NCBI GenBank assembly: GCA_020137815.1
Contig: CM035350.1
Location: forward strand, 4,402,001-4,466,000
Length of the DNA: 64,000 nt
Origin: Hormiphora californensis
Taxonomy: Eukaryota > Animalia > Ctenophora
Direction of reading: 5' to 3'
Shown: piece by piece, positions 1 through 64,000 of the stretch
Numbering within the stretch: position 1 is the first letter of the stretch
Layout: every line of letters starts with the position of its first letter
Notes under the pieces: model-generated
Told to the model about the DNA's origin: nothing
Seen by the model: the letters and a program-made list of their open reading frames with translations, nothing else
Database searches by the model: none
Position numbers and translations under genes: made by a program

Positions 1-400
1 CAAACAAATGGAGAAGAGTTTGAATGGAGCTTATACTCGTATGTTGAGAATGGCACTTAACAAGAACCAGTGGCAACTCCGCATGACTAATGGCACGTTG
101 TATGGTATTGGAGGGTTACCCATTCTCAGCACTAAAATAGCGGAACGAAGACTACGACTTGCCGGACATGCACAACGCCATCCTGAGCTGACCCTCCACA
201 AAGTCCTTCTTTGGGAACCGCTCCATGGTCAAGCCAAACGTGGCAGGCCCTCGAAAACCTTTGTGGATGTTCTACGGCAAGATACGGGTCTGGGAGACGT
301 GAAGGAGATAGCTTCAGTTATGGAGGAACGTGATGCGTGGAGAAAACTTGTTCAAGGCGTTCGGGAATTCCACCCGCCTTAAGTCAAAGTAAGTCAAGTG
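1..400 (+). mobile_element. 3' end of an RTE-clade-like non-LTR retrotransposon (C-terminal part of RT ORF plus short tandem tail)
   Basis: ORF 8-382 has RRLRLAGH...R...LLWEP.HG...RGRP..T...L..D.G....A..M..R..WR, typical of RTE ORF C-termini. The stop is followed by an AAGTC/AAGT repeat tail (381-399). Confidence 0.8.
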
Positions 401-472
401 ATAATAATGACATGTTTTCATTAGAAATGGTGATCCGATCTTGCCCTTTTACTTCTAGAAACACTCGAGAAT

Positions 473-522
473 CAAATAGAAACAAGTTAGTTAGTCATGA
501 CTAACTAACTTGTTTCTATTTG
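473..522. repeat. Perfect 50-bp palindrome
   Basis: caaatagaaacaagttagttagtca|tgactaactaacttgtttctatttg; the arms are exact reverse complements. Confidence 0.9.
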
Positions 523-629
523 TATTTGCTCTCACCCTGTGATAGAGCACTGTCGGCACCCGGTACACTGCAACTGTAACACTCGAGAATCCATCATTGA
601 CCCTTTCCTATACTACCGAGAACTTTGTA

Positions 630-993
630 GAGTAACACGTGTAACGTACCTCTGCCATTGAGTAACACGTGTGTAACGTACCTCTGCCATTGAGTAACAC
701 GTGTAACGTACCTCTGCCATTGAGTAACACGTGTAACGTACCTCTGCCATTGAGTAACACGTGTAACGTACCTCTGCCATTGAGTAACACGTGTAACATA
801 CCTCTGCCATTGAGTAACACGTGTAACGTACCTCTGCCATTGAGTAACACGTGTAACGTACCTCTGCCATTGAGTAACACGTGTAACGTACCTCTGCCAT
901 TGAGTAGCACGTGTAACGTACCTCTGCCATTGAGTAACACGTGTAACATACCTCTGCCATTGAGTAACACGTGTAACGTACCTCTGCCATTGA
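630..993. repeat. 30-bp tandem minisatellite, about 12 copies (left half of an interrupted array)
   Basis: Unit gagtaacacgtgtaacgtacctctgccatt, nearly identical copies. On the minus strand each unit contains the exon end/donor GAG|GTACGT of the CAT gene. Confidence 0.95.
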
Positions 994-3015
994 GTGTGTG
1001 TGTGTGTGTGTTTTGCACCGCCCGTCATTCCTCCCACTTTACTGCCCCACAATGGTCGGCAGACAACCTATATTAATATTTGGCCACATTGATGCCTGAG
1101 TGAGATCGAGGTCGCGCAGCGACCGAGATCGATCTCACATCTAGGCCTCCGGCGCGTTATTGATTTTAGAGCAAACTTTTTCAAAGACCTGGCTGCAAGG
1201 AACTACCGAACCGATTTGCATCTCGTTTGTTGCTCCTGGCAGATAATTGTCTCTAGTTTTACGGAAAATACCCGCGAGTATCAGCATTTGAGGAATAGTG
1301 GGTCAAAATTGACGCTAAACATGAGCAATTCTTTAAAGACCTGGCTGCAAGCTCCTACTCGGTCCTGGGACAATCTGCGGGTACTGGGGGAATCGTCATG
1401 GCCTTGTGAGTATGGGAAAATACCCGCCGATTCATCACGATGCGAAATGAGGCCATAATTGATCTTTGAGCAGTGCTAGGTCAGCTAAAAAGGTCTCCAA
1501 AAACGGTCTATCACGCGCGATCTGCTGAAAACGTGCTTTAATATCGCGCGCACGTGAGTTCTTGCTCTCAACGGACCGGGATCCTATTATTCGCGGAGCG
1601 AGAATAGGATGCGATGGATCCAATATTAATATCACTCTTCGCCACCGTCCCCCACACGTAGGGATAATGTTGATGTTGTTCCGGTTTGGGTCCTGGTATT
1701 TTGTCGAGCAAGCTCAACATTTCCCTCGAACCTTCGCCGGCATCACAAGAAGAGTATTTGATACAGTGAATCTAATATTAGACTGACATACCTATATTGT
1801 CAGGACAATGGATGGAATTTACCTGTCTCACAGACTGGTCTTTGGTTACTACTGCTCCAGGGAGCTGTAGAGGTAGGTGGGTTGCCGGATATGACAATAC
1901 CGTGGGTTCACCATCTAATCGGTGACGGCTGAAATATCTTATCACACCTCAGGTCTTTGGTCAAAACCGCTAGCAGTACTTATCAGCATGCAACCTGGGG
2001 GTCCGGACAGCTAATTTCTTAGCAAGCACAGATAAGCATGAAAAACGCTTATGTAAACTTCTGGTGAGCATTTGGCAAATTATCAGCTCCCAGGGGTTGC
2101 ACTATTGCGGGGTAATTACTTGCCATACGGCGGAGTTGGCCCTTTGTTATGGCCCAGACCTGCCCTACCTTAATAGTGGGTCCCTTATGATGTGGTTTTG
2201 TTGGAATCCCCCGGCCGTAGCGATTCTTGCCCTGTGGTTTGCTACTTCTTTCAGGTCGGGATAGTTAGGGATGGTTTAATCGAATAGGTTACTTTTGGCT
2301 ATTAGTTTGGAGAATTTTACCAAATCAAGTGTGTTGCTTGATCTGTTTGTTAGTGAGGAGGATTGTTCTAGATATATTGCAAAGGTAGTATGTGGCAAAA
2401 ATTTGGGCAGAGGTTCCCCAGGGGAATAACCCCTATTTTTGCGAGAGAAGGTAACCTCCGTCCGATCAATATGGGATGTTGGACAGGAGGGCTGTTTTAA
2501 AGGCTACAGCTGCCGGGTGATTACAAATCATGGGTTGCCATAATTGAGGGAGGCTAGTTCTCTGGCGTAGAATTTACCCCCATAATTAAATGGGAGACAG
2601 CCGAAGGGTCATCAGGCATGCCTAGTAGGCAGAGGCCCTCGGTGATTACAAATCATGGGTTGCCATGTGTAACAAGGTTACTGGCTGGGGTGAGATTATC
2701 AGTTCAACCGGGATCCCCACTAAGACTCAGCCCGACGACCGACCGACAAACGATCGATCAACGACTGATATCAATCGTCAACCAACCGCTCATCAATCGA
2801 CCGCCGAACCAAATCCCAGCAGGGACCAGCCGCACTGCAAGAGCTCGGTGCCATAGTTGAGTTCGGCAAGGTCTCTGGCAAAGTTTACTCCCCAAGATTG
2901 GGGAGAGAGCCGGTGTGATTTGACCGTAATCACTGGACCATCAGCCAACCAGGTCCACGGCAACGGGACTGAGCTCGAAGAACTCAGCTGGCACGAAGAA
3001 CCTGAGTTCCCCCCG
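994..3015 (-). mobile_element. About 2-kb non-coding insertion splitting the 30-bp array; (CA)n 3' tail; putative non-autonomous retroelement (may hold a nested piece at ~1072-1631)
   Basis: Flanked by ctgccattga at 984-993 and 3016-3025. (GT)8 at 994-1010 reads gcaaaa(CA)n on the minus strand. Blocks at 2491-2643 and 2844-2911 match 63878-64000 in reverse complement. No convincing ORF. Confidence 0.6.
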
Positions 3016-3662
3016 CTGCCATTGAATAACACGTGTAACGTACCTCTGCCATTGAGTAACACGTGTAACGTACCTCTGCCATTGAGTAACACGTGTAACG
3101 TACCTCTGCCATTGAGTAACACGTGTAACGTACCTCTGCCATTGAGTAACACGTGTAACGTACCTCTGCCATTGAGTAACACGTGTAACGTACCTCTGCC
3201 ATTGAGTAACACGTGTAACGTACCTCTGCCATTGAGTAACACGTGTAACGTACCTCTGCCATTGAGTAACACGTGTAACGTACCTCTGCCATTGAGTAAC
3301 ACGTGTAACGTACCTCTGCCATTGAGTAACACATGTATTGTACCTCTGCCATTGAGTAACACGTGTAACGTACCTCTACCATTGAGTAACACGTGTAACG
3401 TACCTCTGCCATTGAGTAACACGTGTAACGTACCTCTGCCATTGAGTAACACGTGTAACGTACCTCTGCCATTGAGTAACACGTGTAACGTACCTCTGCC
3501 ATTGAGTAACACGTGTAACGTACCTCTGCCATTGAGTAACACGTGTAACGTACCTCTGCCATTGAGTAACACGTGTAACGTACCTCTGCAATTGAGTAAC
3601 ACGTGTGTAACGTACCTCTGCCATTAAGTAACACGTGTATAACGTACCTCTGCCATTGAGTA
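3016..3662. repeat. 30-bp tandem minisatellite, about 21 copies (right half), starting inside the CAT exon end
   Basis: Same unit as 630-993. The outermost copy overlaps codons YSMAE and the donor at 3647. Confidence 0.95.
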
Positions 3663-6022
3663 GATGACTCGGACGGTAGTGGTGAGTGTACAGAGTCCAC
3701 AGGAGAAAACCGTGAATATCAAACCAGCTATCTCTATGTACTGGATTACTACTAGACCTGAAGGAGAGATAGACGTGACGGGAAGATGAGTAAAATTCAA
3801 GTCGGTGAATGTCCCTGGCAAGAGAGAAAGGGGCCTACACGGAGTCTTTAGGACACAGATAAAGAGGGGGACTAAATATGATAACCTACCTTTTTCTTGA
3901 AGTGCTCCGATGAATCCCGTAGTCCCGTCAATAGAGTACCAGGGCACAAAGTAGGCGATGGAGAAGGCTGTGAGAGCGTAGAACACCAAGACAAACAGGA
4001 AGGATATAAAAGTGGCCCGTGGTAGGTCTCGTTTGGGGTTCACTGCCTCCTCTGCTAGACACACTACCGATTCCAGTCCGACAAAGGCAAAGAATGCCAC
4101 CCCTGCCCCTGACACAATGCCACTCAGACCGAATGGTGCGAACCCAGTCCGACCACTAGCAGGGTCAACCACTTTAGAGAGGTTATCCACGTCCCCGTAA
4201 ATGAGGCCAGTTATAATGAATATAGTGAGGGAGAGGGAGGATATAGCTAGAATTGCCGTGTTTAGCAGTGCCACACCCTTGATCCCCACTATATTGATCG
4301 CCATGAAGATGATCATAACGGCCACTGCCAGCAGGTCCGTATGAAGCATCCAGCTGGGGAAGGTGGACTCCTGCCAGGTGGACACTGTTCCATTCAGCAG
4401 GAACCTATCCAGGTTATCCGATATACCCAGAGTTAGGATTGGAGGTTGGATAATAAGCTCTCCAATCAGGAACATGCCCACCACGGCTGAGGCGAACTCG
4501 CCCAGAGAGAAGTAACTGTACACGTAGGCACTGCCCGTACATGTGTACCTGAGAGAGGATGATACATGTGTCAGAAGTTGGTTACGAAGTCACCCCTTTT
4601 ATTGCAATAATAACAGAGGGGTAATTTCATTACCAATGTCAGAAGGAGGGTCTTGAGAACAAGCTAGAACTTTGAAAGGAATCACTCCCAATCCCATTGC
4701 TCCCCGTTATACTAGAGAGGCCGGATTTTACTTCCACATGGCACCTACCAGGTAGGTGTGGTAGGTCCTACCTTGATGCGAGGTCTGAGTAGCATAGGAC
4801 GGATAACCCAGCAGCAATTCCAGAGAGAAGGTAGCTGATACAGGTGGCAGGTCCAGCTACCGTTTGTACTATCGTCGGGGTTATCACAAATATACCTGTA
4901 GTAGAAGATGTCTAGTTACAAATAGATCTGGTAGTATGGGATGTAGTGTGTCTCCCCCACTCAGCATGACATAATAATGGATGGTTATTTAGTGGGTGGT
5001 AGTACACCACCCACGGTACCCCCATGCCACCCATGCTGGTAATATCACTGATAAAATACTCGACGACGCAACGAATTAATTAAATATCATCTTTACCAGA
5101 CATATAGAATTGACAGTGACAACTCGCGTTCTCCTCCCCTCCCTCCTATTTATCATTAGTTTCTTTGCAGTGTAAAAAACAAGGAGGACATCATGATAAT
5201 TGGGGACATCTCAAGACACGAACCTGAACCTCAATAACTAGGTAAATTTCCCAGACACCCTTCCACTGATGGTGCCCCCTATAAATGATTTGCTACGTAA
5301 GACCACCCACCATGATTTGATTGAGTTGTACCCTTGTCATGAAATAAAACTAAAAATTCAGATTCAAGTGAGTGGAATAACACTGATTTCGCAGTGTCAC
5401 TCATTGAAGGGTACCCACTCGAATATGTATCAAATATGGCGGACCCCGTTTGGGTTCCTAATCTGAACTAATATCGGGTCGGGTCGGCACCGTCAGACAG
5501 CTCATTTATCAGTCCCAATTATCATCTTTCTCACAGTCTAACACAGGCCTCCCTATATTGTCTCATTAAAAACCGCTCTGATCTCATGTTCTCTATTCGC
5601 TAAATATCACACCTCTCCAGTTTTAGGTGCTACAACAGACTCATAGTTGCACCAGTTGGTGTACATTGTACACTGTACATGGAAATTGGGAAATGTTTCC
5701 CAATTCCCAAAGTTACACTTTAGTGGTTATGGGGTGAATCAGGATAGTACTATACAATCTACATACCAGGAACCGACAGAAACAAGTAAGCAACCAATCA
5801 GAAATCGTTATTTAGGCCACGTGACTGGTTATCAGCCAATCAGGGACCAGTATTTCCTGATTCGGTCGGTTCCTGCTACATACCTGCACCCAGCATGTGG
5901 GCTAGTCCCTGAACAATAAGGGGCATGAGGGTGAGGCACTTGCTGAGCTTGTTTGAACTCCCCCGATCCTCCCTGACCTGTACCATACGCTCCCCGATAC
6001 TTGGGGAGCCACAACGAAACAT
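3648..6022 (-). CDS. Cationic amino acid transporter (SLC7A1-4/CAT family, APC superfamily), 5' exons; the remainder is not found in the window
   Basis: Exons 6022-5884 (LSKCLTLMPLIVQGLAHMLGAG), 4895-4772 (IFV...AGPATCISYLLSG...LCYSDLASR), 4548-3890 (GSAYVYSYFSLGE...GFAPFGLSGIVSGAGVAFFAFVGLE...AEEAVNPKRDLP) and 3757-3648 (RVIYSMAE). GT-AG boundaries are phase-compatible. Confidence 0.85.
5767..5875. mobile_element. 109-bp hAT-type MITE
   Basis: TIRs caggaaccgac...gtcggttcctg; 8-bp TSD ctacatac (5759-5766 and 5876-5883). Confidence 0.9.
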
Positions 6023-53753: not shown

Positions 53754-56700
53754 CTATGCAATGAGTGATCGTCCGGTCATAGCAGCAGGTTGCTTGACTC
53801 CCATTAGATTCAACACTGTGGGTGCAACATCGCACAACGCCATGGTAACATCTTCACTCAGGAAGGAGGCTGACCCGCCATCCATATAGAATGGTACTGC
53901 AAGGAAGGGGTCGAGATTATTATATTCAAGGTGAAATAGGATACAGAATAGATAACAGAATGTCACACACACACACAGACATGTACGTGACTTGTTTACA
54001 CAGCCGGGGGATTGGGGAAGTTAAATATAATAAACTACTACTAAACTGTAAACAGGAACTAGAATCAGGAAACCTTCTACATTCAGGAGTGTACTGCTAT
54101 AACAGTATGGCATTACTCTTTACTTTTATTACCTCTACTACAAGTATGGGCTGTGTGAGGTCCGCCTGATTCTGAGAGCATCTTTTCAGCATTTCCATGA
54201 TCCGAAGTGATAAGGAATACATAACCAAACTTCCGGCACGCCTCAACTATCTCACCTATACACCTGTTGAGATATATAATTGTCGCGATTACTGTATCAT
54301 TACACTTGTAGTAATATATAATTGTTGCGATTACTGTATCATTACACTTGTAGTAACATATAATTGTCGCGATTACACCTGGGATAGTATAGTATAATTG
54401 GCAAGACATGATTACTGTCTCTATAGAAACCACACACTGGGATGATTTGTCCAATTAGACATACCACGTACGTGTGCCATTACTGTTATTGTATAAAGCA
54501 AGTTAATGGATTTGAGAGCCGTATTAAATAATACAGTTCAACTGGTATAATACAGAGTGTAAGATCCATCGATAATGCATATATATAATGAGATCTTAAC
54601 TTGAGATCATAAGTAAGTGTTTCTATAAATTACCTGTCGGTTTCTGAGCAGGCTATAACGGTTGGTTCGTATTTCCCAGTGTGTCCTACCATATCAGGGG
54701 GAGCAAAGTTGCACATCACCATCTGGTGTTCTCCCTTCTCTATCTGAGCAACCATCTGGGAAGGGGAAGTAGGGGTTGGGAGAGGGGGCTGGAAGGGGCA
54801 ACCATCTGGTGTTCTCCCTTCTCTATCTGAGCAACCATCTGGGAAGGGGAAGTGGGGGTTGGGAGAGGGGGCTGGAAGGGGCAACCATCTGGTGTTCTCC
54901 CTTCTCTATCTGAGCAACCATCTGGGAAGGGGAAGTGGGGGTTGGGAGAGGGGGCTGGAAGGGGCAACCATCTGGTGTTCTCCCTTCTCTATCTGAGCAA
55001 TCATCTGGGAAGGGGAAGTGGGGGTTGGGAGAGGGGGCTGGAAGGGGCAACCATCTGGGGTTCTCCCTTCTCTATCTGAGCAACCATCTGGGAAAGGCAA
55101 GTAGGGAATAAGAGGGGCTGGAAGGGGGTGGTGGTAGAATTTAGAAAGTAGGAAATGATACAATAGGGGATACATTCTGGGTAACTGCCAACAAACGATA
55201 GACAAACAGTGGGACACGAAATAATACACTAAAAATTACAATAGGCCATAGGGACTAACAACTTACAGCTTTGGCTACTCCAGCAGCATTCATGGTCGGC
55301 TGGAGGTCGTACGTTGCAACCTTGGGAGAGGGTACCATTTCCCTGTGTTCACCGGACCATTGTTTTTCCAGGCCACCGTTAAAGAAAAATGTAACATGGG
55401 CGTACTTCTCTGTCTCTGAAGGGAATAGAAAGGTTATCAGTCAGTTAGAAAGGGATAGAAAGGTTAGCTAGCAGGTAGTAGGGGATATAAAGGTTAGCTA
55501 GTAGGGGATATAAAGGTTAGCTAAAAATAGGGAATGGAAGGTTTGAAATCATCAGATTTACACACTGGACTTGCCAGATGTGCTATAATACACTAGGATT
55601 GTTTTGTTCAAACCCGGTGTGAAAGGGTCGTGCACGACAACACTAAACCAACAACAATACCTGCACAGTGGTATTGGGAGATGTTGTGTTTGCTAAGACA
55701 CTCCGCTAGTGTGTCTTCATTCGAGGATGGTGGGAAGAGAGAGGGGAATGGGAAATCCTCCTTATACTTTGTCATTGTAACCACAGATAGATTCCCAGGG
55801 ACTTTAGCAGTTTCAAAGTGTTGCTGTATCCCAAAGGCCTCCGAAATTTGCCTCATTCGATCAGATCGGAAATCAAAGAACAGGAGAGTATCTCCATCTC
55901 CAATTCTACCCTCCTCATCCACAATGATGGGTTTCAGGAATTCGTCAGTCACATCAGCAGCATACTGATCCCTTATGAACTGGAGGACTTTATCCTTGGA
56001 AACTTGGTCACCAATTCCCTGGACCAGGCCCTCGTAGGCAAGTTGAATTCTCTCGTGTCTCTTGTCTCTGTCCATTGCATAATACCTGGTAGGGGGCAAG
56101 AATATTACATTATTGCAGTTGAATATTATAATCAAGCAGAGAATTCTCTGGAATTAGAATTGCGTGTTATAGTGTAGGAGACGATGATATGACTTATATG
56201 AGGGGGGCACGGGGCGACTTATGAAGGAAATGTGAAAGTAAACAATGTCCCTCCACCTTCGATACTACATAATATCAGAAATAATTCATGTAACATTCCT
56301 GTATCAAACTAAACCTGTTTATTCCTGTTTATTCCTGTTTATTACCTGCCTACAATGGTAGCCAGTGATCCGAACCCTAGATCATCAATGTAACCCATCA
56401 TTTCCTCTACAAAACCTACACCTGATGTGGGTTTGGTGTCTCGGCCATCAGAGAAGAAATGAAGGTAGGTGGGAGGGGCACCCAGTTTCTTCAGAGCAGA
56501 CAAGAGCCCCTTGCAGTGATCAATGTGAGCATGTACACCACCATCAGATACAAGTCCTGGAATGTTTGGAAGCCGGGTTAGACGATAGATGTATACACAG
56601 AGTTATTCATCAGACAATGATCACAGATGTTTTAGATTTCAAATTGACAAAGAAAACGAGCAGCACCCGGCAGCACTACAGCTGTACTTGAACTGTTCGT

Positions 56701-58344: not shown

Positions 58345-60474
58345 GTTTAAGTTTAAGTTTAAGTTTAATCACTATTTATCACAAAGTCAATATAAAATAT
58401 TAAAACCTTGTCCCGCTCTTACACCAAACATATTTAATATAAATAGATATAAAAAATAAGCTACAAGGCTGATGTGAAAGCACCAGCGGTTACCTAAAGC
58501 GGGTTAAGCTAGTTCACGATACAATGAGGCAGATAACATCAGCATAAACTGCACAATTAAATAACTGAGATACAACGGCTTTTGAAAAAGTGCACAAACA
58601 AACCAACACAGCCCGCAGACAAACAAAACGAACAAACAAACAACCAAACAAATAAATAAGCAAACAAACAAACAAATAAGTTAACACTAAACAGACAGGC
58701 AAACAAGAAAGTTAACAAACAAGCATACATACAAACAAACAAACAAACAAAAGAACAGTCCAGTAAATAAATAAACAAACAGGTACAAGTGAACATCAAA
58801 ATAATAACAACAGACATAATATCAGATGAGACACACAGGTAATAATAGAGTTCAGCATCACGAATAGTTTATTGTCCATACATGGCATAGTTTTTTATCG
58901 GTAAAAACGTTAAAACGGTATGTATGGATCTTCTTTCTTCTTTCGTTTCTCCCTTTAGACTCAGTCGATCTGGAACCTCATCTACTCAGACTCTACACAA
59001 ACTCGTAGGCCAAGATACACTTAAAACAGAAAAAACACACTAAGAACCTAAAATTCTCACTACTCTGGCTTGGATGATCCCTCTACTAAGTCTCATGAAG
59101 ATGTAGGAAGGACAGGGAAATGGGAAATGTAGCAGGTTAAGGAGGGAGCAGCAGGTTAGGGAGGAAGCAGCAGTGCAGGTTAAGGAGGATGTAGCAGGTT
59201 AAGGAGGGAGCAGCAGGTTGAGGAGGATGTAGCAGGTTTCAGGAGGGAGCAGTAGTGAAGGTTAAGGAGGGAGCAGCAGTGCAGGGTAAGGAGGGAGCAG
59301 CAGGTTAAGGAGGGAGCAGGAGGTTTCAGGAGGGAGCAGGAATGCAGGTTAAGGAGAATGTAGCAGTACAGGTTAAGGAGGATGTAGCAGGTTAAGGAGG
59401 GAGCAGCAGGTTGAGGAGGGAGCAGCAGGTTAGGGAGGGAGCAGCAGGTTAAGGAGGGAGCAGCAGGTTAGGGAGGAAGCAGCAGTGCAGGTTAAGGAGG
59501 GAGCAGCAGTGCAGGTTAGGGAAGGAGCAGCAGGTTAAGGAGGATGTAGCAGGTTAAGGAGGATGTAGCAGGTTAAGGAGGGAGCAGCAGGTTAAGGAGG
59601 AATTAGCAGGTTTCAGGAGGGAGCAGCAGTGCAGGTTAAGGAGGGAGCAGCAGGTTAGGGAGGGAGCAGCAGGTTAGGGAGGGAGCAGTAGGTTAAGGAG
59701 GGAGCAGCAGTGCAGGTTGAGGAGGGAGCAGCAGGTTTCAGGAGGGAGCAGCAGTGAAGGTTAATGAGGATGTACCAGGTTAACTGTTAAGGAGGATGTA
59801 CCAGGTTAGGCCTTAGGGAGGAAGCAGCAGGCTGCAGGTTAGGGAGGAAGCAACAGGTCAGTGATGCAGCAGCAGGTTCAAAGGGAAAGGAGAAGGGTCA
59901 GGGGAAATCAGCAGTCGTAGGCCATCCTAAACAAACAGGTCTTCAAAGATTTCTTGAAAGAAGACAGTGTTTCTGAGTTGCGTATCTGCTCAGGAAGGCG
60001 GTTCCACATTTTTGGAGCGGCTACACTGAAGGCTCTCTCTGTTGCTTTGTAGTTGCATGTACTGTGCACCTCTTCTAGTCTCGTTGTATCAGTATCCACT
60101 CGCAGACATTTAGCCTTTGGTTTACGCTTTTGAACCATGTCTGCCATGTATCCGGGTGTGTCGTTGTTAAGTGACTTATAGACTAGCAGACATATCTTGT
60201 ACTCGATTCTGTGTCTAATGGGTAGAAAGTGGCACTTCTTACGGAGATCAGTAACACCTCGTCTACTTCGTTGGCCAAATATAAAACGAGTTGCAGAATT
60301 TTGTAGCTTCTGCAAGCGCCTCACATCACTGTCTTTAATCCCAACGAGTAATGCGCTGCAGTAGTCAATTCTGGAATGAATTAATGAGTTGACAAGCTGG
60401 ATCTTTTGTTGTCTAGTCAGATTGCCAGCAACTCTCCACATGTTAATCAGCTGATAGTTGCACGACTGAATCAC
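58345..60474 (-). mobile_element. 5'-truncated L2/Crack-type LINE: RT C-terminus (59908-60474), long 3' region and (TAAACT)n tail
   Basis: SRIDYCSALL.G...LQKLQNSATRFI...LPI..RI.YKI.LLVYKSL...RAFSVAAPKMWNRLP...FKKSLKT.LF. Tandem gtttaa at 58345-58368 is the presumed tail; assigning the 3' extent is inference. Confidence 0.75.
59128..59880. repeat. Variant minisatellite (agcaggttaaggagggagc, 19/25-bp units)
   Basis: Dozens of degenerate copies, directly readable. Confidence 0.9.
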
Positions 60475-60551
60475 TCTAGCTATGGTAGCTATACGCTTTT
60501 TGAACTTTGAAGTGGTAACTAGTTAAGTTACATTGTCGTGAGAAGAAACAG

Positions 60552-62700
60552 GCGCCGTTACCATCTGGGTGTTTAGAGGGCTGATTACAGGTGCGCACTG
60601 CCAAAAAAGTACCCTGCACTAAAGCGGCTCTAACCGCCAAACCACTCAATCGTTTTGGCTAATCCAAAGTTTATCTGATAGGAAATGTCAAGCCCTAACC
60701 CCAACCCAAACCACAGCCCTAACCCTAACCCTACTTTAGCCCTAACCGGTAGGCGGTAACCCTTAAAAGCCACGAGTGCTGGCACTCTAAACACCCAGAT
60801 TTTAAGGTTGGCCAAACTGGCGGGCGTGATTATAATCTGGGTGCCTTGCGGCCTGTTTACAGGTGCGCACTACCAAAAGAGTACACTTAGACCGACTTTT
60901 TTCAAACGGCTATAGCCGCGGAACCACATGGCCGATTTGAGTAAACTAAACAGTAAACGGTATCTGATATAGAATCGATAGCCCTAACCGATAACCCCAA
61001 ACAAAACCCTAACGGTTAGGGCCTAACGGCTAACCCGACCCTAACAACAGCCCTAACCCGTCTCGACCGCCAAAATCGATGAATTGTTAGCAATGGAAGG
61101 CACTTAAAAAGATAAATAAAAGAAGACAACAATAAATCAATTCATCCTCGGATCCTCATGCTACGTTCTTCTCGTTCCTCTGTTCTTCAGGTCACCAGTT
61201 CAGTATTTGTTAGACTTGTGATTGCAATCTTTCTCCGATTTCCTCTTAAGGCAATAAGGCATGATCTCAGGAGGGAGAATCGTAGCCTTGTCCTCAGGTG
61301 AGCCATGAAGGCACCCAGATTTTAACGTTTTCCCGACAGTTTGTGGCAGCTAATTTTTCAAAAACTGGGATTTTCTTCAAGCAAAATTTCCAAGCGCGCT
61401 TGTGCGCGGCGTTATTTCTGGTTTTGCGCGTCACAAGGCACCCATATTTTTTAACGCGCGTCGCAAAGTCAAAAATTTTATCGGTTTTTTTAGAGCTGGG
61501 CAAAATGGGAAAACGTTAAAATCTGGGTGCCTTTCATTGCTAACAATTCGTAGTTTTGGCGCGCGCGACGGGTTAGGCCTCTGGTTAGGGTTTGGTTTGG
61601 GGTTACCGGTTAGGGCTATCGATTCTCTAACTGATACCGTTTAGTTTACACAAATCGGCCATGTGGTTCCATGGCTATAGCCGTTTGAAAAAAGTCGGTC
61701 TAAGTATACTCTTTTGGCAGCACGCACCTGTAAACAGGCTGCAAGGCACCCAGATTATAATCGCGCCCGGCAAAATGGGCCAGCGTTAAAATCTGGGTGT
61801 TTCGTGAGTGATGACGGTTTTTTAGGGTTAGGGCTTAAGTAGGGATAGGGTTAGGGTCGGGGTTGGGGTTTGGGTTGGGGTTAGGCCTTGACATTCCCTA
61901 CCAGATAAACTTTGAATTAGCCAAAACGGTTAACGGTTGAGTGGTTCGGCGGTTAGAGCCGTTCAAGTGAATAAACTTTTATGGCAGCGCGCACCTGTAA
62001 GCAGGCCACCAAACACCCAGATCGTAACGGCGCCCGGGCAAAATCGGAAAACGTTAAAATCTGGATGCCTTCCATTGCTAACAATTCATCGATTTTGGCG
62101 GTCGAGACGGGTTAGGGCTGTTGTTAGGGTCGGGTTAGGGTTTTGTTTGGAATTATCAGTTAGTGCTATCGATTCTCTATCAGATACCTTTTAGTTTACT
62201 CAAATCGGCCATGTGGTTGCGTGGCTATAGCCGTTTGAAAAAAGTCGGTCTAGGAAATAAAAGTGTAAAGTCGGATTTTTTGAAGTTGTCAGCCCCTTTT
62301 TCACGCACGGTGTCGTATTTGCGCATGACAGCCCCCACTTGCTCTCACTTTTCGGCAAAAAAGCCGCATATCATCTAGAAGAGCATAATTTTGTGAGTCC
62401 GTAGAAGTTTTGTTTGACGAAATTGGTCAAGAAACAAAGGCGTGAGAGCCAAAACAAGTGTCCGACACGTTTCCGACGTGCAAATAAAAACTCGCACGCC
62501 ACCCAGGGGGGTGACAACTTCAAAAAATCCGACTTAACTCTTTTTAGCGCACCCCTGTAAACAGGCTACAAGGCACCCATATTATAATCGCGCCCGGCAA
62601 AATCTGGGTGCCTTCCATTGCTAACAATTCATCGATTTTGGCGGTCGAGACGAGTTAGGGCTGTTGTAAGGGTCTGGTTAGGGCTTCGGGGTTATCGGTG
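60552..62700. repeat. Cluster of a ~550-bp repeat with TTAGGG-like tracts, in inverted (60552-61086) and tandem (61510-62700) copies
   Basis: Recurrent aaaatctgggtgcctt, ggctatagccgtttgaaaaaagtcggtcta and gggttagggtt blocks on both strands. Confidence 0.7.
62268..62535. mobile_element. MITE nested in the above repeat
   Basis: TIRs aagtcggattttttgaagttgtca / tgacaacttcaaaaaatccgactt. Confidence 0.8.
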
Positions 62701-62893
62701 TGGAACACTGAACAGTGAGTAACCTCTCTCCCCGAATCCCTCGCCAACTTCATAAACCCGTAACCTCTGAAGTCCCAGCCTGGAAGCTTGCGCCTTATCC
62801 ACACTGTGTTGGCTCATAGTTGTTCCATTTTCAGTTCGGTTGAACCACTATTTAGAAAAACCTGAATAACCAATAATATATCTTAGCTGCAGA

Positions 62894-63215
62894 ATGGTGA
62901 AGCAAATCGTAGAAAAGTGGAAGGTAGATGAATCAAAGCCTGTGATTGTGGAAAAATATGACAAAGTAAGAGTGTTAAACAACCAACAACACAGTTGAGT
63001 AGTTGACCACACTAGACCTGATTTCATCCCTTCTATTTATCCCACCCAGGTCGCAGTAAAGAATGGTATTGATGATCTGTTTCGAAAGATCTTCTCCTCC
63101 AAGCACGAGATAACTGAGACGTTTAGGACACGAGACACTCGACTTCTTATTTGCTTTGTTGCTGTTGTCTTCTCAGGAGTTGGGTGCCTCTACGACTTCC
63201 TTCACCCTTTCCCTG
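62894..63215 (+). CDS. SPCS2: Signal peptidase complex subunit 2, first two coding exons (the rest is beyond the window)
   Basis: Exons 62894-62965 (KPVIVEKYDK) and 63050-63215 (AVKNGIDD...DTRLLICFVAVVFSGVGCLYDFLHPFP) match SPCS2 KPVKIDKWD.SAVKNSLDD...DGRL.IC...WDY.HPFPES. Confidence 0.88.
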
Positions 63216-63368
63216 GTAAGAACTAGAAAGACACTGAACAATGAACAGTTTAATCAGTTTAATCAGCTGAGTTGTGTTTGTTAGTTTTTATTAAAGTTAG
63301 AATTTTATTTTGAAAGGTCGTCTAATAAACTTTCACGTGGGTAGATGCTCCCCTTTCTCTCTTGAATG

Positions 63369-63547
63369 ACACTAACACTCCTTTCAGAATCTAGTAAACG
63401 CTAACACTCCTTTCAGAGTCTAGTAAACACTAACACTCCTTTCAGAATCTAGTAAACACTAACACTCCTTTCAGAATCTAGTAAACACTAACACTCCTTT
63501 CAGAATCTAGTAAACACTAACACTCCTTTCAAAATCTAGTTAACACT
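63369..63547. repeat. 29-bp tandem repeat (6 copies) containing a branch point, acceptor and the start of SPCS2 exon 3
   Basis: Unit acactaacactcctttcag|aatctagtaa; AGs at 63387, 63416, 63445, 63474 and 63503; g|aa tct gives the expected ...FP-E-S. Confidence 0.9.
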
Positions 63548-64000
63548 TGCCTGGTGGGATGGAATGGTAGTGATGTGGTGCTGAACTGAGCTTCGCTCTT
63601 CTTGGCGCCATATCACTGCAAGCCCGATCAGTCAACCTCCGCGTCGGTCCATCCTGGAAACGTACTCCGCGTGTGTGGTCCGGTTTTTTGCTCGGGGTCG
63701 GGTGGTCTTTGGCCTTGTTATGGGTGGTCGTGCTCCTGGTTCCGGCCGAGATGGGCTCTCTGTCTTAGCGGGGACTGGGGTGCGGTCGTCTTGGGCGGGG
63801 TCGGGGTCTTCCCTGTCCGTCGGGTGGGGGATCGGGCTGTGTGCGTGTTGTGCGGCTAATGACTGCGGACGTGAGATGCTATCTCCCATTAAGGGAGTAA
63901 ATTAAACGCCAGAGAACTAGCCTCGCTCAATATTGGCAACCGAGGGCCTCTGCCTTGTAGGCATGCCTGTTGACCCGGCAGCTGTAGCCTTTAAGACAGC
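63548..64000 (+). mobile_element. 5' part of a non-coding element related to 994-3015, inserted at the SPCS2 acceptor array
   Basis: 63878-64000 shares three sequence modules with 2491-2643 (reverse complement); begins with the HDV-like fold. Confidence 0.65.
63556..63865 (+). ncRNA. HDV-like self-cleaving ribozyme (predicted) with extended J1/2 and P4
   Basis: P1 GGGATGG 63556-62 pairs with CCATCCT 63649-55 (G·U at the cleavage site). P2 CAGTCA 63629-34 pairs with TGACTG 63860-65. P3 ACC/GGT with L3 TCCGCGTC. GG 63656-57 forms P1.1. P4 base CGTAC/GTGCG. J4/2 G-C63856-TAA. Confidence 0.75.

Follow-up and report, generated by a model that had tools for sequence, protein, structure and literature searches.

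An HDV-type ribozyme fold begins a multi-copy insert, most likely of a non-LTR retroelement, at the apparent intron 2/exon 3 border of SPCS2 in the ctenophore Hormiphora californensis

HDV-like ribozymes are known from the 5′ ends of the non-LTR retrotransposons RTE, Baggins, R4/Dong and L1Tc/ingi, where a double pseudoknot at the start of an element inserted at ordinary loci, including introns, is predicted to release the element from the host transcript (PMC6765202, PMC3774820). The same arrangement is seen in a 64,000-nt stretch of the H. californensis genome (GCA_020137815.1, CM035350.1, positions 4,402,001 to 4,466,000; hereafter, the window), but here P4 has 84 pairs, half of them G·U, and is nearly free of A, and the flanking arrays are made of host target sequence. 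R2 elements share with this locus a long J1/2 and a variable P4, as well as 5′ junctions that carry non-templated bases and tandem duplications of target (13-28 nt) (PMC3774820), and R2 is present in ctenophores (PMC5035012, PMC13188248). In contrast to R2, however, the element described here lies outside the 28S rDNA, with SPCS2 as its flank, its P1 is not built from the array, and 6 to 21 target copies are found, on both flanks in a second element of the window, whereas R2 mostly has one extra 5′ copy; R2 identity is ruled out by the insertion in SPCS2 rather than 28S rDNA. In CPEB3, too, an intron carries an HDV-type fold of the same sense as the host pre-mRNA (PMC4836649), but that ribozyme is short and conserved across mammals, whereas this one is long and multi-copy and seems to have been inserted recently. 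Tandem repeats also arise at the ends of the RTE elements, likewise non-LTR, that seed microsatellites (PMC2887409), although theirs are short, element-encoded 3′ units and those found here are site-specific host units of 29-30 bp. Our literature search for ctenophore ribozymes returned R2 surveys and unrelated papers only; subscription papers, Repbase or supplements may list the family.

The fold occupies 63556..63865 on the plus strand (310 nt), with a predicted cut 5′ of G63556 and a predicted catalytic C63856. P1 (63556-62/63649-55) consists of 7 bp, the first of which is the G·U pair G63556·U63655, and is followed by a 66-nt J1/2 (63563-628) that contains a hairpin (63567..63619) of 22 pairs (10 G-C, 7 A-U and 5 G·U). 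P2 (63629-34/63860-65) has six Watson-Crick pairs, P3 (63635-37/63646-48) flanks the 8-nt L3 (63638-45), and the CC at 63639-40 in L3 can pair with the GG at 63656-57 after P1′ as P1.1, as an earlier note on this DNA had proposed. P4 (63658..63855) spans 197-198 nt, with 38 G-C, 41 G·U and 5 A-U pairs and 10 A in 198 nt, and in J4/2 the putative catalytic C63856 is followed by U and by A63858-59. All five helices (the set given in PMC6326823) are present in nested double-pseudoknot order, and the core bases agree with the descriptor from the same source: G1-Y, the C-C/G-G pairing of P1.1, the U, C and G of L3 and the catalytic C. Within L3, 63638-63643 matches U19, C20, C21, C23 and G24, the spacing of the reverse U·G wobble; in J4/2, the sequence C-U-A-A departs from the C-R-R-A of the design descriptor by having U and no purine after the C (PMC6326823). 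In moth R2, constraint on J4/2 is reported for the C and one A alone (PMC3774820); the roles of the catalytic C and the L3 G in this fold type are described in PMC13635239. The HDV-type fold at 63556..63865 is real: every helix and core base of the complete fold claimed earlier was recovered at its named coordinates, and J1/2 and P4 measured as long as had been claimed.

A strict descriptor returned a single match in the window on both strands (128 kb), at 63556..63865, and no match in shuffled sequence (0/200 whole-window and 0/73,811 local dinucleotide shuffles). A looser descriptor gave the same single match, but 5% of whole-window shuffles (57 of 1140) also passed it, as did 75 of the 134,423 local shuffles; the pattern by itself is therefore good but not overwhelming evidence. 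Extra weight comes from the J1/2 hairpin and the P4 rod because these fold independently of the descriptor, which ignores both (fold z -6.35 for J1/2 and -7.56 for P4). P4 reaches -103.5 kcal/mol on the plus strand against -33.6 on the other, the rod folding on the plus strand only, while all four DNA-type inverted repeats checked in the window have a G·U content of 0-4% and fold on either strand. In a pseudoknot-free ensemble (ViennaRNA, which cannot represent the pseudoknot), P1 had a probability of 0.83-0.99 and a helix at 63624-28/63643-47 was preferred over P3, a competitor that could slow folding of the ribozyme. In Rfam searches the HDV families were not matched at E<=5 or E<=10, and no ribozyme family appeared at 60000-64000, 63545-63900 or 400-3800, the matches in these intervals being below-threshold miRNA-like hairpins. 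Rfam models do not score pseudoknots, and the inserts total 260 nt.

Copies of the ribozyme were sought in three DNA sequencing runs (X1, X2 and X5, from two samples, one perhaps the source of the window), and all three gave evidence of them. Single contigs over the ribozyme exceeded SPCS2 exon contigs in depth by 3.8x in X1 (135.2/35.7), 8.4x in X2 (1955.9/233) and 10.8x in X5 (5744.9/532.5), rough ratios given that depth is not copy number. The ribozyme is multi-copy. Summed depth in X5 rises from 303 at 63480-533 to 15,411 at 63534-587, the 54-nt bin that holds the predicted cut, which places the 5′ boundary of the element to bin 63534-63587 at 54-nt resolution and agrees, at that resolution, with the earlier placement of the insert's 5′ end at the ribozyme. 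Because the depth steps up only there, the 29-bp array upstream is not part of the repeat. Multi-copy status, together with a repeat start in the bin of the predicted cut, makes the ribozyme most probably the 5′ terminus of a non-LTR retroelement, an arrangement already known from R2, RTE and L1Tc. A 769-nt X1 contig spans 63588-63998, differing at 4 of 411 letters, and carries 358 further letters, indicating that the element continues past the window; its last in-window part, 63876..64000 (plus strand), holds a structured unit and an exit segment common to the second element. A joint from 63976 back to 63888 shows that other copies carry the downstream unit in tandem. No open reading frame attributable to the ribozyme-headed element was found within its in-window part (to 64000), exact pattern scans for ribozyme copies found none in metagenome or viral contigs, and the one possible RNA run (X19) had no contigs at the locus, which is no proof of absence. 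Shares in runs X7-X17 were low (0.04-0.11) and count as evidence neither of expression nor of other species.

Fourteen variant positions were mapped on the fold, and among these listed variants four keep a pair, five break one as listed and five are unpaired. The pair-breaking variants include C63633G in P2, with no partner change visible among the listed variants, and one of the unpaired variants, confined to one diverged contig, alters the catalytic C. Several of the pair breaks and the loss of the catalytic C share the depth of one diverged X2 contig, which is likely a dead copy. Compensatory changes in P1, P2 or P3 were absent from the listed variants; in one X5 contig the J1/2 hairpin has another sequence, in which, by eye, the pairs are kept and one U-A is replaced by C-G through a double change.

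The host gene is represented by SPCS2 coding exons 1 (62894..62965) and 2 (63050..63215; Pfam SPC25, E 7e-11), both on the plus strand, so that the fold has the same sense as SPCS2, as claimed. The best homologs of exon 63050-63215 are a 195-aa protein identical across the exon and a Mnemiopsis leidyi protein at 76%, and in four of five homologs the protein continues E-S-K after exon 2. What had been described as a host tandem array, 6.2 copies of a 29-bp unit at 63369..63547 (plus strand), turned out to be six copies of SPCS2's own acceptor and exon-3 start: each unit comprises a motif that we take to be branch-point-like, the acceptor AG, intact in five of the six copies, and six bases able to begin E-S-K. 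Splicing to any of the duplicated acceptors would lead to a stop after five codons. Since the array consists of copies of the SPCS2 acceptor and exon-3 start, the insert, judged from sequence, sits at the border of intron 2 and exon 3, behind duplicated acceptors. The earlier placement in the SPCS2 intron thus stands in part: the insert is preceded by five duplicated acceptors that are intact, and the remainder of exon 3 lies outside the window, which ends 135 nt past the fold. The spacer between the array end at 63547 and the predicted cut (63548..63555, plus strand) is 8 nt, as had been claimed. In X1 and X2 the window's intron haplotype reaches roughly half the depth of the exon, and the longest X5 contig departs from it after 63275, which together suggest that the insertion locus is polymorphic.

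A relative of the element lies on the minus strand at 996..3015 (end ~1000). This second element, element 2, is about 2 kb long with a (CA)n 3′ tail, and is matched by the post-ribozyme segment at 2643-2491 of the minus strand (73% over 113 columns, 87% over 47). It lies in the same sense as its host, an amino-acid permease gene, and is flanked by minus-strand arrays of an identical 30-bp unit, 21.4 copies on its 5′ side (3016..3662) and 12.1 copies on its 3′ side (630..995), the unit being an exon end with its splice donor; the junctions of the element overlap by ~11 bp of target. It contains a G·U-rich hairpin (2705..2830, minus strand) of 59 pairs (22 G-C, 25 G·U and 12 A-U; z -12.3). A search for a second HDV ribozyme in it gave no match even under relaxed settings, and because element 2 is without a canonical HDV core, the ribozyme is not universal in the family. 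Motifs that we took to resemble twister, pistol or hammerhead ribozymes failed inspection and Rfam. Pfam gave no matches in any of the six frames; in a large-library protein search of two of the three minus frames, one had no match and the other had three short ones, two of them to the starts of unrelated Pleurobrachia gene models. Parts of its body also recur in two unrelated gene models labelled Pleurobrachia bachei. By the searches made, element 2 appears to be non-coding. A ~65-nt unit composed of a hairpin, an A-rich linker and a short stem occurs in three versions, at 63876-63945 (plus), 2536-2606 (minus) and 2846-2914 (minus), which differ in the hairpin loop; it has no Rfam match and is tandem in other copies.

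Other repeats were noted in the window. The 3′ end of an RT-encoding element, presumably RTE-like, occupies 2-382 of the plus strand (homologs with RT and endonuclease domains) and is followed by short tandem repeats to 400; it shows that such proteins are present in the genome, and no link to the ribozyme element was found. A perfect 25-bp palindrome (473-522) lies downstream of this fragment. On the minus strand, a 204-aa frame at 59908-60522 resembles, by eye and with no Pfam match, the C-terminus of a CR1/L2-type ORF2 and adjoins a 19-bp array (59131-59754). Upstream of SPCS2, 60570-62700 contains very high-copy inverted repeats with TTAGGG-like runs, probably foldback or MITE-like, and depth at 62508-62561 is up to ~3000x that of the SPCS2 exon. 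An array of five 83-bp units with an internal repeat (54718-55127) showed no link to the ribozyme element.

Given these features, we consider it probable that the HDV-type fold at 63556..63865 starts an insert present in several copies, likely a non-LTR retroelement, and we predict that the RNA of this element releases itself from the SPCS2 pre-mRNA at G63556. RNA polymerase II would read through from SPCS2 into the element, the pseudoknot would close once P2′ (63860-65) had been transcribed, and C63856 would act as general acid in a cut before G63556. The 3′ product, with its 5′-OH, could then serve as template for target-primed reverse transcription by its own or a partner's protein. A precedent for promoterless intronic elements freed by HDV-like ribozymes is found in PMC6765202. 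Like the corresponding bases in R2 elements whose cut falls at their own 5′ terminus, the 8-nt spacer may have been added without a template or may derive from the junction; the long J1/2, variable P4, non-templated bases and 5′-junction target duplications all have parallels in R2 (PMC3774820). In favour of the retroelement reading we also counted the relative in the same window, with its (CA)n tail and target overlap of ~11 bp. The effect on SPCS2 would be set by a race between splicing and cleavage, in addition to the decoy acceptors.

We regard it as unlikely that the ribozyme, while genuine, is a relic that is slow or inactive in vivo in this copy, so that SPCS2 splicing wins and other copies, or a promoter inside the downstream unit, supply the element RNA. 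Such a relic would fit the competing helix at 63624-28/63643-47 in the nested fold, the ~200 nt of P4 that must be transcribed before P2 can close, and element 2, in which the downstream unit is present and the HDV core absent. The downstream unit is also tandem in other copies, and tandem promoter monomers occur in some LINEs. Some properly folded R2 ribozymes are inactive in vitro (PMC3774820). Yet all core positions are intact in the window copy, P1 is highly probable in the nested ensemble, and the copy differs from the X1 contig at just four letters. We hold it to be very improbable that repeat DNA rich in G and U matched the fold by chance, or that the fold marks the end of a DNA transposon: the absence of an Rfam HDV match and the 5% of whole-window shuffles that pass the loose descriptor would agree with it, but no shuffle passed the strict descriptor, J1/2 and P4 are exactly where the two inserts with folds of their own are found, and the four DNA-type inverted repeats fold on both strands with hardly any G·U. 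Domestication as a CPEB3-like intronic ribozyme regulating SPCS2, which the shared sense and the position at a splice junction of a conserved gene might suggest, is still harder to credit, given that the ribozyme is multi-copy rather than single-copy as in the CPEB3 type, that the locus is apparently polymorphic, and that splicing to the upstream duplicated acceptors runs into a stop.

For the arrays, which bear on insertion and are compatible with the ribozyme either way, we lean towards the elements making their flanking arrays rather than finding them. Both of the two family members in view adjoin arrays of their own host's exon/intron junction, each junction unique; the 29-bp and 30-bp units are unrelated in sequence; and in a crude null, 0.55% of randomly placed points came to lie 10 nt or less from an array end. 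Multimerised as well as duplicated target is reported at R2 5′ junctions (PMC3774820), a precedent for elements that make tandem target copies, and arrays of this size on both flanks of an element were not found in the literature searched. With less support, the 29-bp array may have arisen when insertion duplicated host target sequence that later expanded, as may the arrays on either side of element 2. There is nevertheless an appreciable, if smaller, chance that the arrays came first and that minisatellites are where the elements insert or persist: the junction overlap of element 2, only ~11 bp, would be an ordinary target-site duplication inside one 33-copy array, and tandem arrays are many in the window (73 TRF rows). 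A short direct repeat bounds the array unit, and such repeats are a classic slippage substrate.

The base composition of the hairpins raises a further question of origin, with A-U pairs making up 7/22 in the J1/2 hairpin, 12/59 in the hairpin of element 2 and 5/84 in P4. In ctenophores, A-to-I editing occurs mainly in repeats, with a 5′ G disfavoured (PMC9989829), and the long, G·U-rich, A-poor hairpins are perhaps the product of such editing fixed by reverse transcription, for which the evidence is mixed. A first ADAR neighbour test, in which the G of G·U was counted as A, gave 6/17 against 16/66 (p 0.37) and its CpG version gave p 0.59; in a second, post hoc test, a 5′ G preceded the paired A in 14/17 cases against 27/65 for G in G·U (p 0.005). 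Among copy variants in P4, G·U was exchanged with G-C three times and with A-U once, and by eye in J1/2 with G-C once and with A-U twice, the two kinds of exchange thus being about equally frequent. Selection for RNA pairing without a DNA palindrome would explain part of the G·U pattern equally well, and no paper on an editing footprint of this kind was found in our literature search. A more ambitious reading, in which one retroelement family frees itself from host pre-mRNAs, lands in sense at splice junctions, makes minisatellites on both flanks that act as decoy or replacement splice sites, and has hairpins that drift to G·U through A-to-I editing fixed by reverse transcription, is offered as speculation that we rather doubt.

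With this ribozyme, a strategy already known among retrotransposons is extended to a ctenophore element outside the rDNA, and the P4 of the ribozyme provides a natural test of the limits of that helix in size and G·U content. If confirmed, the arrays would give minisatellites a traceable origin, each from a unique host junction at insertion, and the hairpins may record RNA editing in DNA. The SPCS2 locus, likewise if confirmed, would give a housekeeping-gene allele at which splicing has to compete with both cleavage and decoy acceptors.
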